Shown: positions 12,983-32,000 of the stretch, piece by piece
Layout: each line of letters opens with the position of its first letter
How positions within the stretch are numbered: the stretch's first letter is position 1
Assembly: GCF_001997385.1 (NCBI RefSeq)
Contig: NZ_CP019633.1
Location: 2,850,001 to 2,882,000 of the forward strand
Length of the DNA: 32,000 nt
Direction: 5' to 3'
Origin: Sedimentisphaera cyanobacteriorum
GTDB taxonomy: Bacteria > Planctomycetota > Phycisphaerae > Sedimentisphaerales > Sedimentisphaeraceae
The notes under the pieces: model-generated
The model's input: the letters and a program-made list of their open reading frames with translations, nothing else
The model's database searches: none
What the model was told of the DNA's origin: nothing
Made by a program: the position numbers and the translations under genes

Positions 12983-13500
12983 GGGGCTTGGCAAAGTGGG
13001 GCAGGCCTTTTTAGTTGCAGCAGGCCGATTGCGTTTTTTCTCATAACTCGCAGCTCTTGGAAAATTCTTTACCAGATAAGGGCAATAAAACCAATTTTTT
13101 TTGTAAGTTATTTTCTTTCAAGGCTTCAATTTCATTAATAAAATCTCTGAAATCTGCGCACTCAGAAAATAAAAGTGATCCTGTGTTTAGCCCCGGATCT
13201 GCATCAGAGAAGAGATGATTCAATATTGAAGATTTAGGATTTTACACTATCTCGGGCAACTTCGCTGCTCGGTACTTCTCTAAATTGGTGGCTTTGGGAA
13301 ATTTTGGGGAATCTGAAAATTTTTCTTGATTTTATCTTTCAATCTGCTTAATCTAAAAACAAGTTAGTAATTAAGATTTTGCAAGGAAAAATATATGACT
13401 TCTAAGTTTTTGGCAATGCTGGCTACAGTTTTTTTCTTTTGCGAACCCTGTAACGAGACTTTTTATTTTTTAAAAGAATAGGATTCTGGCTAATAAAAAG

Positions 13501-13785
13501 ATGATTATAGCGGTAATTATTTTGCTAATCACATGGCAAGATGCATTAGGAACATTTCAAAGTCCTATATATTATGTAGATGTTGAATGTCGCTTGACTA
13601 TTGATGAATCGCATGGAGGTGGGCAGTATAATTATCCTAAAAAGGCTGCATTATACAACCAGTATGGATATCCAATAGACGCTAACAATTATTTAGAGGA
13701 TTGGAGCTTTGATTGGGACCATGGAGACCTTACATATACAAATTTTTGGTACGGACAGAAGATAGAAGCATTTATATTTTGGTGA
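13501..13785 (+). CDS. Hypothetical 94-aa ORF with a hydrophobic N-terminus, possibly a detached leader of the RHS protein
   Basis: The N-terminus is MIIAVIILLITWQDALG. The ORF ends 20 nt after the RHS reading frame opens at 13766. No clear RBS. Confidence 0.4.
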   Translation: MIIAVIILLITWQDALGTFQSPIYYVDVECRLTIDESHGGGQYNYPKKAALYNQYGYPIDANNYLEDWSFDWDHGDLTYTNFWYGQKIEAFIFW

Positions 13786-13882
13786 TTATGAAATTTTTGG
13801 CTGTGATAGCTCAAACTCTATTATTACAGCTGATGAAGCAACAAGCCAACTTGGTGATGCCAGCGGTTCTGGGAATGTTAAA

Positions 13883-16800
13883 ATGATCTGTTTTGACACG
13901 CAAGACGACCTGATAAATATAGCAAAAGATGACCCTAATGTTTCCGTAAAGCTTGGTGATGCCGTAGCTGGAGATCCTATTCACTTAGAGAGCGGCAAAA
14001 GTATTGAATCAATAACTGACTTGAAAATCCATGGAAATACAATGGATATTGAGTTTAATAGGCTGTATCTTGGAGAAAGCTTTGACAGAGGGTTTAAACA
14101 TAGGTTCAATGTTCCACTAAAAAACACAAAATATTTAGCGGGAACAGATGACAATGTATTGAAAAACGATTGCTCTGTACAAAAAAAGATTACCAAAACC
14201 GCTAACCTTCTCAATATTCCATCAATTGTTAATCTCTATGGTATAAATGACCCAAATGATCAAGCTAACTATACTTTTATGGTTGTTGATAAAGTAACTC
14301 CCTTAACAGAAACGGACTGTTTTTTCGAGTTACCTGAAAATGCTCCCAATAACGGCAAAGTTGTATTTAATGATGTAGGCAGCGGCAGTGTGAATTTTGA
14401 TGTAGCGTGTAGTTATTATCATTACTGGTGGTACCCGGAAGTTAACTTTTATGATCCAAACGGAAATGTTCTTTCCACTTCAGAACCATATAGGGTTCTT
14501 ACGAAGATCGGAACAGATACATACAATTATACAAAGGATTATCCCATCAGTCCATACAGCTGCAGGGTAGGCCGGAACTGGACGCACAACTACAACATAT
14601 TCCTCCAGGATACTGTGGAGGAGAGCTCAGGTTCAAACTGTCCAAGCGAGACGGACAATCTGAAAATCATCTCTGGCGCAACAACGTATAATTTTTCCAG
14701 AAGTTCGGGAGCGGATGAGAGCGTACCTTTTACCTGCCAATCCTCGCCGGAATTAAAATTATACAAAACCGTCGATTCCGGCGAGGCATATTTCATCCTG
14801 CACAAGAAACATGGAGAGAGATGGAAATTCAGCTCTGCCCTATCTGATTCAATCACTTATCCTTTAGAATATATGGAAGATCGCTTCGGCAATCGTCTTG
14901 ATTTTGAGTATTATGCCGAAGAAAAAGAGGGGCTGCTGCAATCAATAACAAACGATGTCGGCAGAGAAATAAACTTTTACTACACCAGCACAGATTATAT
15001 GCTGGATTATATCGAAGACGACAGAGACAGGCAATGGCATTATAGCCGCAATTCAAACTTTGAGCTAACATCTGTTGCTTCCCCTTCCCCTGAGGGAGGC
15101 TCTCAGGGCAGTGTTTCCCAATATACATATACAAATCCAGCCGGATCAAATCCCCATCAGCTCAAAACCAAAACAGATGCTCAAGGCCAGATATGGTATG
15201 ACAATACTTACAGCAGCGAAGGCAGAATTGTATCCCAGCAATACGGCAGCGGCAGCTTTACTAGCTCATACAATTTCCCTGAAAACGATCCGAACTATGT
15301 TGTAATAGCCGACAGGGAAGGGAATGCAGTAATGCATTACCTCACAAAAACAGGCTTAATTGACAAACGAAAGGTTTACAGTGATGAAAGCACATGGCTT
15401 ACAACAGACTACATCTATGATTTTGAGCTTGACGGAAGTTTGGAGGAGAAAGAGGCTCCCTGCCTAATCAAGAAGATTGTGCTGCCGGATAACAAAATAA
15501 TCGCATATACGCACGATCAATACGGAAATACAACAAGCGAAACCCATAAAGCCAACGAAAACGACCCGGGCATAACAACTTCATACACATACACCGGCGG
15601 AGCAGACTCCAATCTCTGCTCCATAACCACTCCGGACGGATTGACGTATCAGTTTTCATATACAGGAGACGCTCTAACACAAATTGAGCTGCCGGCGGCT
15701 ACAGTGTATGATCCAAACTCCCTTGACTACGTTGTTGAAAATCCAACTTATCAGCTTGGATACGACTCACGCGGAAATTATGATTACATAAAACTTCCCG
15801 ACGGAAACACCCTCAATTATGAATACAGCTATAATGAAGATGGCCAAAAGAGCCAGCTTATTATCAATTTCAACTACGATCCCTTATTGCAGTATTCATA
15901 TTCTTTTGATACTACTTCCGGTTTGATAGAGCAGGCAACCGACCCTGACGGGGTAACAACGGATTACAGTTATAATGATGCAGACAGGCTTACGGAAATC
16001 CAAAACGGATTAGGCGAAATCGCAAAAATTGCATACAATCCGCTTGGGCTTGTAGAAACTGTGAGCACGCAGCTTGGAGCAAGCTATAATGAAAACACTG
16101 CCATAAACTACAGCTTCGGATACACCATCACAGACAAGCTTGCAGCCATCACAGACAGCCTCGGAAGAATAACAACAATCGGCTACAATAACAACGACAA
16201 GCGGCAATTCGTTAAAGACCCCAAGGCTTCCGCAGACGGGTTTAAGAACAAGGAATATTCATACAACTCCCGTGATCTTCTAAAATCAATCACTTTTCCT
16301 GAAGACTACGACCCCGCAGCGGGCAATCAGAATGTTACTAATATAAGCTATGATGAAGGCGGAAGGGTCGAATCTGCAACAGATCCGGAGGGCGGGATAA
16401 CCGCTTATGATTACGACGGATACGGCAGGCTGGAGCAAATCACTTATCCAGATTCCGGCAAGGAGAAGTTCTCATACGACTGCGCAGGCAGGATAACAAC
16501 AAAAACCCGGCCATCCGGTGATAAAATCCTCTATGATTACAACCTCTCAGGAAAGCTTTCAGCCAAAGCCGTGCTGCCGGCAGACAGCTCAAACGCATTA
16601 ATGAAAGACGAGAACGGGATATTTTCAATGCTTGATTCCGACTGGGCCAGCATCTGGGATCCGAACAGCTTCGGCGGGCAGTTTGCACAAACAAGCCAGA
16701 ACGGGGCTAATTTTCCCTTCACAATATCCGAATCAGGCAGCTATATCGTTCAGGTTTACTTCCCTGCCTCAAGCGGGACAGTACGGTTCAGTATATATGA

Positions 16801-30496: not shown

Positions 30497-31321
30497 GTGC
30501 AATCATCTTGTAAAGCAGCAGGCATCAGCCGGGGCAGTTTTTACTATACTCCTTCAAGAAACGATGATGCTGAGGTAAAAAGACAGATAGAGCTGGTAAT
30601 AGATTCCCGTCCTCGACGCGGATTTCCAAAGATATTCGACAGTATCCGCCGCAAGGGATATAGCTGGAATCACAAAAAGGTTTATCGTGTTTATAAGGAA
30701 AATGAATTTCAGCTTAACAACCGTAAAAAGAATTTGATAAGGCAAATAGAGCGTAAACCTATGCCAGAAGCCACGAGAGCTAATGAGATATGGAGTATTG
30801 ATTTTATGAGCGATAGTTTGAGTAATGGTCGGCCATTCAGGGCTTTCAACGTTATCGATGAGTTTAACCGTGAGGCATTGGATATTGAGATCGACACGAG
30901 CTTACCTTCGCTTCGCATAATTCGTAGCCTTGAATTAATAGGCTCTGATCGGGGTTTCCCCCGCTTTATTCGCAGCGATAATGGGCCGGAATTTAGGAGC
31001 CTTCAATTTCGCAGGTTCTGCTGCCGAAACAGAATCAGGCACCGCCGTATAGAAGCAGGCAAGCCTCAGCAAAACAGTTTTATTGAACGATTCAATCGGA
31101 GTTATCGAGAGGATATACTTGATATGTACAGTTTTAAGAATTTATCAGAAGCTCGTAATTTAACTTTAGATTGGCTTATAGAATATAATTATGAGCGTGG
31201 GCACGAATCACTGGGAGAGAAAACTCCTGTAGAGTATGTTCGCAGTTTTTTGCCTTTCACCCCTCAAAATAATTCTGAAGGGGCAAAAGGAAAAAACTGC
31301 TGTTTGAAGGAATTTGTCTAA
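30497..31321 (+). CDS. IS3-family transposase OrfB (DDE/RNase H-fold integrase core)
   Basis: D in IWSIDFMSD, D in IRSDNGPEF, E in NSFIERFNRSYRED. It is probably expressed as an OrfAB fusion from 30177. Confidence 0.9.
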   Translation: MQSSCKAAGISRGSFYYTPSRNDDAEVKRQIELVIDSRPRRGFPKIFDSIRRKGYSWNHKKVYRVYKENEFQLNNRKKNLIRQIERKPMPEATRANEIWSIDFMSDSLSNGRPFRAFNVIDEFNREALDIEIDTSLPSLRIIRSLELIGSDRGFPRFIRSDNGPEFRSLQFRRFCCRNRIRHRRIEAGKPQQNSFIERFNRSYREDILDMYSFKNLSEARNLTLDWLIEYNYERGHESLGEKTPVEYVRSFLPFTPQNNSEGAKGKNCCLKEFV

Positions 31322-31354
31322 TTATTACTGTTCAAAGACAGGGGAGAGGCACAT

Positions 31355-31684
31355 ATGAAAAGGCGACTTAATTATTGGAACCCATTTAGTCCATTTACAC
31401 AAGATACTAAGTATTTTGAAAATTATTCAAACCACTACTATGTTTTGAACGGAAAAAAATATACTGGTGAAGAAGTTAATTATATCGGTGTTGGGGCAGC
31501 TGGCGCTCAAAAAGCTTTGCCAAAATCTATGCCAGAAATATGGAACAGATTTTGGCATGGTCATTCAGCTACTGAAGGAGAAAGTTTTTTTTATGACTAT
31601 GGGCATAACAGATTTAATTACCTATTTCCTCGCGTAAACCAAAGCTTCAATAGGCCCTACTTGGGAGGTGGAATATGGCTTTAA
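31355..31684 (+). CDS. Toxin-tip fragment homologous to the C-terminal half of the primary RHS tip (possible remnant separated by the IS)
   Basis: YTGEEVNYIGVGAAGAQKALPKSMPEIWNRFW...FFYDYGHNRF aligns with YYGRECNPSSVNYIAIGMASARDGLTKTEMKAMIFGWK...FFAEWGYSYY of 13883..18877. No RHS core precedes it. Confidence 0.5.
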   Translation: MKRRLNYWNPFSPFTQDTKYFENYSNHYYVLNGKKYTGEEVNYIGVGAAGAQKALPKSMPEIWNRFWHGHSATEGESFFYDYGHNRFNYLFPRVNQSFNRPYLGGGIWL

Positions 31685-32000
31685 AGAGTTTCTATAAAAC
31701 AGCATTATCATCGCTAATCACAGTATTTTTTTTGTATCTGGTTAATTATGCTGCCGGCCTAACCCTTACTTCCAGCAGCTTTCTCCTCTCTTCTGCGACA
31801 GCATTTATGCTTATATGGGGTTTGTTTTGGAAGATAGGAATCTCTGCTTCTTTAATTGCCGTGGTTATCGGAGGAATGTTTAACAAAAGAAAGGCAGTGA
31901 GGATAGGGGGCGTATTTTTTCTATTTATAGCACTGGCCTTTATAATAAGCTTGATGTTAGGACAGTGGGGGTACTATCTTAAAATGGGAGCAATAAAGGG
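31674..32000 (+). CDS. Multi-pass membrane protein, candidate immunity gene, 3' end outside the window
   Basis: The ATG is preceded by GGAGGTGG and overlaps the upstream ORF by 11 nt. The frame is open and hydrophobic to the window edge (MALKSFYKTALSSLITVFFLYLVNYAAGL...). It is absent from the track because no stop falls in the window. Confidence 0.55.

Follow-up and report, generated by a model that had tools for sequence, protein, structure and literature searches.

A stretch of 32,000 nucleotides of the Sedimentisphaera cyanobacteriorum chromosome (contig NZ_CP019633.1, positions 2,850,001–2,882,000; the whole stretch is called the window below) contains, between 13.4 and 32 kb, one full-length RHS gene (13883–18877) followed on the same strand by seven orphan modules, each consisting of a core, a tip and a small open reading frame (ORF). 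In our view this region is very probably an RHS (YD-repeat) polymorphic-toxin locus of the chromosome that arose through successive rounds of C-terminal displacement. All of the sequence-level hallmarks of an RHS toxin and of an orphan array are found in it, which suggests that it works in the manner of the enterobacterial rhs orphan arrays. Positions are given as window coordinates; the orphan modules are designated M1 to M7, candidate immunity proteins carry the prefix I_, and P and L numbers denote individual proteins and related loci.

The full-length gene and the repeat array

The 1664-residue main ORF is followed by a series of shorter same-strand ORFs that extends to the end of the window (Table 1). 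The shell matches RHS_repeat (PF05593; E = 1e-40) and TIGR01643 (E = 1.4e-26), and the gene also matches solved Rhs shells in the PDB with E values from 1e-28 to 1e-18, the closest in sequence being Rhs effectors of type VI secretion systems (T6SS). Two marks of an RHS/YD-repeat polymorphic toxin, the shell repeats and a core ending in DPxG, are present. A Tc-toxin TcB/TcC assignment was rejected: TcdB_toxin_midN is only sub-threshold (18.2 bits against a cut-off of 24.8) and there is no TcA-like gene in the window. A protein of the same length from S. cyanobacteriorum, P0001, is 100% identical over the stretch compared, the primary tip, and bears the NCBI name 'Cell wall-associated polypeptide CWBP200'.

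A repeat search finds one block eight times, with start-to-start spacings of 2069, 1650, 1522, 1244, 2115, 1748 and 1080 nt. Ungapped in-register comparison places the copies at +2069, +3719, +5241, +6485, +8600, +10348 and +11428 from the primary core with zero indels, and near-identity over 180–977 nt (92.5–98.4%) lies far above chance expectation. TIGR03696 (Rhs_assc_core) matches all eight copies with 83–90 bits, the curated cut-off being 32.5. Each translated copy ends in NNPVNxxDPxG(L/E), and SRDP together with DPxG(L/E), which carry the conserved aspartates of SxDP and xDPxG, is present in eight of eight. The G+C content follows the classical pattern of Rhs loci and falls along each unit, from 55–58% in the cores to 33–46% in the tips and 25–39% in the downstream ORFs, compared with 43% for the remainder of the main gene and 46% for the flank. 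The modules have the defining features of an orphan array: their cores are 5'-truncated, keep register with the main gene and lead in every case into a separate tip and a different small ORF on the same strand.

These results agree closely with an initial annotation made from the letters alone, which had described displaced orphan tip/immunity cassettes behind an RHS gene: domain matches, repeat register and G+C contrast all fit that description. Profile searches with RHS_repeat and TIGR03696 bear out the full-length YD-repeat gene ending in an RHS core, the seven offsets are reproduced exactly and without indels by both the repeat search and the in-register comparison, the common DPxG(L/E) endpoint is seen in all eight translations, and the ORF map and G+C contrast bear out a distinct AT-rich tip and small ORF for every copy. 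The retained core lengths, originally given as 977, 575, 411, 180, 395, 650 and 213, are now 977, 576, 396, 180, 395, 655 and 213 nt, and differ only in where the end of similarity is drawn.

The core copies differ at 56 variable sites in mosaic, copy-specific patterns. Over the last 180 nt (eight copies) the four-gamete test fails for 38 of the 66 informative pairs of sites, and over 395 nt (six copies) for 102 of 190; the differences are mostly synonymous (pooled pN/pS of 0.22). This pattern fits gene conversion or recombination among the copies, or descent from several functional donors; the mosaicism does not prove swapping in this strain. We note an insert of about 70 residues within the repeated core, upstream of the TIGR03696 match (17924–18133; residues 1348–1417), which is also found in M1, M2 and M6 and is absent from P0002. 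Its counterpart in P0003 gives sub-threshold Dockerin_1/EF-hand matches (E = 0.002–0.007), and the insert in the window gives none.

The last module is interrupted at 30090 by an insertion sequence (IS). Its helix-turn-helix orfA, its orfB with a DDE rve domain, its imperfect 38-nt inverted repeats beginning with TG and ending with CA, and a 4-bp target duplication (TATG; 30086–30089 and 31354–31357) are those of the IS3 family. Deletion of 30090–31357 joins M7 in frame to the ORF at 31355–31684 to give one ORF of 255 residues, the product of which aligns with the metagenomic protein P0007 at 67% identity (E = 1e-95) without a gap across the junction. The ORF beyond the IS is the remainder of the M7 tip, split by IS3, and not an eighth module. 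The initial annotation had left module 7 unclear, had listed a separate post-IS fragment and had put the array at seven to eight deep; on the restored alignment the first two are one interrupted tip, and of the depth seven orphan modules remain. M6 carries an in-frame TGA at 29190–29192. Its homologue P0012 runs 17 residues past the position of this premature stop, and the next 16 codons of M6 still align with it.

The 5' end of the main gene is irregular. The main frame is open from 13766, where it has no start codon, and overlaps in another frame the 94-residue ORF at 13501–13785, which has a hydrophobic, signal-peptide-like N-terminus. One T fewer in the run of four at 13777–13780 would fuse the two into a single ORF of 1791 residues; the full-length homologues P0002 (1823 residues) and L007 (1858 residues) both begin in signal-peptide-like fashion. 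The fused N-terminus shares a signal peptide and the motifs YYxVxV(D/E) and ExWxF, in the same order, with P0002 and the RHS protein of L007. When the N-termini of the homologues were compared by tblastn with the sequence preceding the main ORF, nothing significant emerged, so the argument is one of ORF geometry and short shared motifs. With this moderate support, the 94-residue ORF probably encodes the genuine N-terminus of the RHS protein, severed by a 1-nt frameshift, which may be a true mutation, an error in sequencing the homopolymer or a site of slippage. In the third frame, another short ORF of signal-peptide-like character (MTSKFLAMLATVFFF...) begins at 13395.

Table 1. Features of the RHS locus and comparison of its core copies with the primary core (window coordinates; aa, amino acids; TM, transmembrane helix)
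Feature	Position	Strand	Description	Basis
RHS/YD-repeat protein	13883–18877	+	1664 aa	RHS_repeat, DUF6531, Golvesin_C, TIGR01643 and TIGR03696 matches
ORF upstream of main gene	13501–13785	+	94 aa, hydrophobic signal-peptide-like N-terminus, frame differs from main ORF	ORF geometry, short motifs
N-terminal plug, DUF6531	13970–14119	+	aa 30–79, begins GDPIHLESGK	PF20148, 24.2 bits (cut-off 24.1)
Golvesin_C-like beta-sandwich in RHS shell	16643–16969	+	aa 921–1029	PF25275, 35.1 bits (cut-off 31.6)
Repeated 3' core block	17489–18475	+		G+C 55% (remaining gene 43%)
RHS-associated core, TIGR03696	18221–18475	+	aa 1447–1531, ends VDPRGL	Profile match
Primary tip	18476–18874	+	133 aa, P/M7 family	Follows core end VDPRGL
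I_P, candidate immunity	18878–19567	+	229 aa, 3–4 TM, C-terminal soluble domain	TM scan
M1 ORF	19555–20928	+	Core copy 19558–20544; tip 20545–20925 (127 aa, M1/M2 family)	Register, TIGR03696
I_M1, candidate immunity	20966–21550	+	194 aa, one N-terminal TM	TM scan; homology to I_M2
M2	21610–22653	+	Core copy 21610–22194; GTG start 21634; tip 22195–22650 (152 aa, M1/M2 family)	Register, TIGR03696
I_M2, candidate immunity	22673–23251	+	192 aa, one N-terminal TM	TM scan; homology to I_M1
M3	23276–24091	+	Core copy 23296–23716; tip 23717–24088 (124 aa, Gly-rich)	Register
I_M3, candidate immunity	24091–24744	+	217 aa, about 3 TM	TM scan
M4	24745–25446	+	Core copy 24771–24960 (180 nt); tip 24961–25443 (161 aa)	Register
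Two consecutive membrane ORFs after M4	25453–26645	+	25453–25998 (181 aa) and 25995–26645 (216 aa)	2–3 TM each
M5	26611–27537	+	Core copy 26671–27075; tip 27076–27534	Register
I_M5, candidate immunity	27537–28154	+	205 aa, no TM	TM scan
M6	28159–29243	+	Core copy 28159–28823; GTG start 28194; tip 28824–29189, remnant to 29243	Register
I_M6, candidate immunity	29253–29603	+	116 aa, no TM, G+C 25%	TM scan
M7, 5' part	29649–30089	+	Core copy 29681–29903; first 62 aa of tip 29904–30089	Register, junction alignment
IS3-family element	30090–31353	+	Imperfect terminal inverted repeats TGTAGCTCTCCC.../...GGGGAGAGGCACA	HTH_Tnp_1 (1e-20), rve/rve_3 (2e-22)
IS3 orfA (HTH_Tnp_1)	30177–30443	+		Profile match
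IS3 orfB (DDE rve)	30497–31321	+		Profile match
M7, 3' tip part	31358–31684	+	Annotated L21SP3_02281 (ORF 31355–31684)	Restored-ORF alignment to P0007
I_M7, candidate immunity	31675–32000	+	At least 3 TM; start overlaps tip stop codon; runs off window	TM scan
M1 core against primary	17489–18465		977 nt	98.4% identity
M2 core against primary	17891–18466		576 nt	96.9% identity
M3 core against primary	18055–18450		396 nt	96.0% identity
M4 core against primary	18286–18465		180 nt	93.9% identity
M5 core against primary	18071–18465		395 nt	95.2% identity
M6 core against primary	17811–18465		655 nt	97.9% identity
M7 core against primary	18253–18465		213 nt	92.5% identity

Tip families and candidate immunity proteins

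The tips fall into five families, {primary, M7}, {M1, M2}, M3, M4 and {M5, M6}, in agreement with the earlier estimate of at least five. No tip has a match in Pfam (even at E <= 10), NCBIfam or the sequences of the PDB. AlphaFold models were made for two tips, M2 and primary, and Foldseek comparison of these with the PDB does not place them either, so that the earlier failure to name a toxin family by eye is upheld.

The M1 and M2 tips are 46% identical, and their domain accounts for most of the 798 matches returned when the concatenated tips were searched against 1.84 billion representatives. The family has hundreds of representatives. Its domain ends the DUF6531 RHS proteins P0025, P0075, P0082, P0106, P0144 and P0145, the teneurin-like protein P0029 and the eCIS_core/DUF4157 proteins P0028 and P0037. 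On the sequence evidence it is a widespread, unnamed and unannotated candidate toxin domain absent from Pfam, NCBIfam and the PDB. In a 40-sequence alignment, R28, H58, N67, K69, E78, G95-T-Y-N98, H106, D110, P113-Y114 and G118-N119 (M2 tip numbering) are invariant or nearly so, giving the pattern HYxRN...YH...NxK...SPDGxxE...GTYN...H...DxxPY...GN, and this set of residues suggests an enzyme. The model of the M2 tip (pLDDT 87.2, pTM 0.79) has no significant Foldseek match in the PDB; the best, an AMOP domain (E = 0.024), was rejected as weak, as was a BECR/colicin D-type RNase assignment (E = 0.17–0.97, TM-scores of 0.27–0.41).

The primary and M7 tips are distant relatives: phmmer cross-matches through P0003, P0008, P0014, P0023 and P0007 connect them, and N, Y, G, A, W, F and G columns are invariant in their alignment (A2). 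The initial annotation had paired the primary tip and the post-IS fragment, and through these intermediates that pairing holds. Homologues of the primary tip itself are P0003, P0008, P0014 and P0023. This family is tiny, with seven matches among 5.8 billion sequences, and all of those with an organism name are from Sedimentisphaeraceae. The model of the primary tip (pLDDT 89.6, pTM 0.85) is mostly helical with one beta-hairpin and has no neighbour in the PDB (best E = 1.3). Both modelled families have confident predicted structures without a solved structural relative.

An NYIG-like motif, the membrane immunity candidate and a weak match to serum amyloid A (SAA) 3 pointed to the Lipocone/SAA superfamily for the P/M7 tips. 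The prok-SAA-type toxin tips of that superfamily have a four-helix core with conserved active-site residues in H2, H3 and H4 (PMC12419801). The assignment is unsupported: a profile search of PDB sequences gave no SAA match, hhalign of alignment A4 with human SAA1 gave a probability of 0.2, and the Foldseek match to SAA3 (PDB entry 6py0) has E = 3.3 and TM-scores of 0.34/0.41. The likeness is limited to helical architecture and a membrane immunity candidate.

Past DPxG, M5 and M6 share about 255 nt of identical sequence (27076–27340 and 28824–29088) before they diverge. The M5 tip comprises a Gly/Ala-rich pre-toxin domain of about 90 residues and a C-terminal module of about 60 residues (GTRxxQxRN...DKGPVPG...HYHRxP...HRPY), which also terminates the RHS proteins P0073 and P0095; in M6 the same pre-toxin domain is followed by a short His-rich module cut by the TGA. 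In other proteins (P0009, P0012, P0020, P0022 and P0058) at least five different short C-terminal modules stand behind the Gly/Ala-rich domain, which indicates a second, inner level of modular swapping. Relatives of M3 were found only as tips in two loci from metagenome-assembled genomes (MAGs) of Phycisphaerae, L008 (37% identity, E = 3e-22) and L009, and for the M4 tip the exhaustive search returned only its own protein (P0004).

Among the candidate immunity proteins, I_M1 and I_M2 are homologous over their full length (25% identity) and share a YxCPExE motif. Pfam and NCBIfam searches of the immunity candidates gave only noise, and a concatenated immunity search returned no matches, a weak negative since it missed the proteins themselves. 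One of the two membrane ORFs after M4 may be the immunity candidate of that module and the other a leftover immunity gene of a lost module. The G+C content of I_M6 is the lowest in the window. The window ends within I_M7, at 32000, and the array may run beyond it.

Related loci and the route of delivery

The core profile identifies 76 loci from many phyla among species-representative genomes. A genome scan with exact core peptides gave no matches, and the corresponding metagenome scan gave two distant loci only; window genes and P0015, looked up as exact proteins, had no record. Of 80 related loci, 45 have one core copy, 22 have two, ten have three and three have four, counts that are biased downward by MAG fragmentation and 10-kb flanks; with eight copies, the array described here is the deepest in this sample. 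Two to four tandem cores occur in 35 of the 80, in many phyla, so orphan arrays are common well outside the Proteobacteria and the architecture itself is unsurprising. The initial annotation was right that this layout is the one known at enterobacterial loci, although it is not confined to them, and its guess of a non-proteobacterial host like those of the Planctomycetes–Verrucomicrobia–Chlamydiae group was also right, the organism being a planctomycete (Planctomycetota, Phycisphaerae, Sedimentisphaerales). We note that L038 (Desulfobacter), L035 (Sedimentisphaerales) and L021 (Elusimicrobiaceae) each have four tandem RHS cores within about 10 kb.

In related planctomycetes, three of the orphan tip types occur on long RHS genes that stand first in their loci. 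P0002 (L003, from a metagenome), a complete full-length homologue, bears a tip of the M1/M2 type at the primary site. The RHS genes of L006 (cut at its 5' end by the contig) and L015 terminate in M7-type tips, which are followed by ORFs of about 225 residues with three transmembrane helices. An M3-type tip lies on the leading RHS gene of L008, a contig fragment, and the next ORF has 217 residues with transmembrane helices positioned as in I_M3. In P0003 (L004 and L005, Sedimentisphaeraceae MAG) the tip is of P type and the ORF behind it is I_P-like (E = 4e-14); two orphans come next, one of which is again P-type with an I_P-like ORF; the L004 ORFs match the C-terminal domain of I_P with E = 4e-14 and 3e-10. 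The same domain matches the ORF that follows the M7-type tip of L006 weakly (E = 0.006). I_M3 and the L008 ORF share length and helix layout without sequence similarity, and the immunity protein of L003 is unrelated to the I_M1/I_M2 profile (probability 0.3). Tips and following ORFs covary in that the related M1 and M2 tips have the related I_M1 and I_M2, and in the P-type pair of L004, the M7-type pair of L006 and the M3-type pair of L008; these pairings indicate that tip families and following-ORF families travel together. Occurrence at the head of a locus and joint travel of tip and ORF are the criteria used by Poole for orphan rhs-CT/rhsI modules (PMC3150448). L015 (Anaerohalosphaeraceae MAG) is of separate interest for an ORF at 2–11302 of at least 3767 residues, open at its 5' end, which ends in an RHS core and M7-type tip followed by the ORF with three transmembrane helices, and which is a far larger carrier of this tip family.

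The ORFs scanned in the window (those of at least 100 residues outside the array and all of those within it) include no PAAR, VgrG, Hcp, DUF1795/EagR or T6SS family, as the initial annotation had also seen; neither a PAAR domain nor adjacent VgrG, EagR or T6SS genes, by which a T6SS-linked Rhs protein would be recognized, are found within the window. P0002 and the RHS proteins of L007 and L012 have signal-peptide-like N-termini. Given the cleavable-looking signal peptides of these homologues and the lack of PAAR, VgrG or chaperone genes in the vicinity, export is probably Sec-dependent rather than T6SS-dependent. The window encodes LptF/G, which indicates a diderm host, so that an outer-membrane step would be needed. 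The homology of P0002 and L007 to the main protein begins at the DUF6531 plug, and a counterpart of the Golvesin_C-like segment is readable by eye, without formal alignment, in P0002 and P0003; this insert is possibly a surface-exposed or receptor-binding module.

We infer that most of the toxins (P, M1–M4 and M7) act on the envelope, because the immunity candidates of the primary gene and of five of the seven orphans are membrane-anchored. The M5 and M6 tips, with soluble immunity candidates and a Gly/Ala-rich pre-toxin domain, probably have cytoplasmic targets reached through a translocation step. The joint picture of a T6SS-independent Sec route for RHS proteins in diderm planctomycetes, with a Golvesin_C-like target-binding insert, at least two unsolved toxin folds and an M1/M2 superfamily shared by RHS, teneurin-like and eCIS carriers, is offered only tentatively.

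The genes upstream of the locus are housekeeping or envelope genes (LptF/G, UDP-glucose dehydrogenase, an extracytoplasmic function (ECF) sigma factor, a FabA-like protein, an acyl carrier protein and a DUF6677 protein), and no tRNA gene that might mark an island was found at the locus. On the minus strand at 9142–10982, the ECF-type sigma factor (10443–10982) is followed by two ORFs without a Pfam match (9980–10456 and 9142–9975), which are possibly an anti-sigma module. A 701-residue ORF at 3618–5723, without a Pfam match at E <= 0.001, adjoins the DUF6677 protein (5769–6212) and an ORF at 1789–2310 with a weak, just sub-threshold PEP-CTERM match.

Mechanism, alternatives and known systems

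C-terminal displacement, the model proposed for orphan rhs modules (Poole 2011, PMC3150448; Steele 2017, PMC5727410), would operate here as follows. The RHS shell would enclose the tip, and by analogy with characterized Rhs proteins the aspartyl-protease site of the core would cut at DPxG, the released tip would be a toxin against neighbouring bacteria and the downstream ORF would encode the cognate immunity protein. An incoming core-tip-immunity fragment would recombine into the resident core and push the older tip downstream, and recombination through cores that are 92–98% identical over 180–977 nt could re-attach a stored tip to the full-length gene. Retained immunity genes would protect against kin using those toxins. 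Rhs orphans and their displacement are reportedly established knowledge from the work of Jackson in 2009 and Koskiniemi in 2014.

Several observations weigh against this interpretation. No tip matches a characterized toxin family, and the term toxin is therefore carried by position and context. The locus is partly decayed in this assembly, with two of the seven orphans broken (M7 by IS3, M6 by the stop) and the N-terminus of the main gene frameshifted, so the stored arsenal of the initial annotation stands as far as the orphan tip/immunity cassettes are present and must be amended in that part of it is damaged. Owing to the frameshift at 13766–13785 the assembled full-length gene has no signal peptide, and if the frameshift is real the delivery gene is currently disabled. 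Apart from I_P, immunity candidates of different genomes are linked by weak sequence similarity. Part of the mosaic pattern could have come about through separate imports of diverged cores and not through conversion in situ, and another part of the 2.95-Mb genome could contain T6SS genes.

The decay also favours another reading, possible although in our opinion doubtful, in which the array serves chiefly as an immunity islet and graveyard: its orphan tips would be dead remnants of earlier displacements that are never redeployed, and selection would keep the immunity genes, which guard against the toxins of relatives. Every immunity ORF wholly inside the window is open, the extra transmembrane ORF after M4 resembles an immunity gene without a toxin, and immunity-only arrays have been documented (PMC5361080). 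However, five orphan tips (M1–M5) are still open, the residues conserved in the M1/M2 family are intact in both of these modules, and cores that are both highly similar and mosaic are expected under continuing exchange. The two readings are not exclusive and both can hold. It is improbable that the orphans are self-expressed from internal promoters or starts and act as intracellular modules of toxin–antitoxin type rather than as spares. There is a precedent in an orphan Rhs of Salmonella (PMC7043789), the orphans of Snodgrassella alvi are transcribed (PMC5727410), and in each orphan here an in-frame start codon (ATG, GTG or TTG) lies at the core breakpoint or a little upstream of it; against this, a scan for promoters and terminators gave no excess over shuffled sequence (59 promoter-like sites compared with 47.8 +/- 6.9), and mostly membrane-anchored immunity is better suited to imported toxins acting on the envelope.

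That the closest solved structures by sequence are T6SS effectors could be taken to mean that the RHS protein is itself such an effector, loaded like its proteobacterial counterparts by PAAR or VgrG proteins encoded elsewhere in the genome. We give this little credence, as the protein has no PAAR domain, neither the array nor the 13 kb before it contains VgrG, Hcp, Tss or EagR-type genes, and the signal-peptide-like beginnings of its homologues in P0002, L007 and L012 are not needed by T6SS cargo. Nothing was found to favour an assembly artefact, which we consider extremely remote: the variable sites are copy-specific across eight copies, there are seven different 5' breakpoints and eight unique 3' continuations, the record is a single 2.95-Mb contig, the M1, M3, M4 and M5 ORFs and the post-IS ORF of M7 (the last with an NCBI locus tag) recur as separate database proteins, and a related MAG has the same layout.

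Interpreted as a product of C-terminal displacement, the locus can be compared with known systems. It shares with the enterobacterial rhs orphans (Dickeya dadantii rhsC, Yersinia pseudotuberculosis, Salmonella Typhimurium and E. coli) the in-register, 5'-truncated cores behind a full-length gene, the DPxG ends, the unrelated AT-rich tips with their own small ORFs behind GC-rich cores, and the occurrence of orphan tip types on full-length genes in other genomes. It differs in its planctomycete host, the absence of a VgrG, PAAR or T6SS context, the signal peptides of its homologues and the absence of a named toxin family, and whereas one or two orphans are described per detailed enterobacterial locus (PMC3150448) there are seven in one array here. 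The Rhs loci of the bee-gut bacterium S. alvi (PMC5727410) likewise have long orphan toxin/immunity series behind a complete Rhs gene and C-terminal displacement, but they are T6SS-linked and betaproteobacterial, and expression and toxicity were tested there. The orphan cdiA-CT/cdiI arrays of contact-dependent growth inhibition, of which E. coli EC869 has eleven orphans (PMC3150448), follow the same stored-pair logic to comparable depth; in these, delivery is by a CdiA filament with CdiB two-partner secretion and the junction is VENN rather than DPxG.

In Bacillus WapA and the bacterial teneurin-like proteins, as in the homologues of the main protein, an N-terminal signal peptide takes the place of T6SS adaptors. 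The NCBI name of the window protein ('CWBP200') derives from WapA, and the M1/M2-type tip is also found on the teneurin-like P0029. Here, however, the host is a diderm with an outer-membrane step to negotiate, and the shell has a Golvesin_C-like insert. The Rhs protein Tse5 of Pseudomonas aeruginosa has a glycine-zipper pore-forming tip. The M3 tip, too, is rich in glycine, and a polytopic membrane ORF comes after it, as would be expected of a membrane-depolarizing toxin; the resemblance is in composition only.

The architecture is textbook and in itself leaves the C-terminal-displacement model as it was. The novelty lies in the host phylum, in how deep the array is and in five tip families without an assignment. 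Interbacterial antagonism in the Planctomycetota is almost unexplored, and the locus offers five delimited candidate toxin/immunity families, one of which has a tip common across bacteria yet missing from Pfam, NCBIfam and the PDB. With an IS insertion, a nonsense mutation and mosaic cores together in one place, the array is a natural substrate for studying the build-up and erosion of deep orphan arrays. A further question posed by the locus is how an RHS cage exported through Sec would reach a neighbouring cell from a diderm cell without a T6SS.

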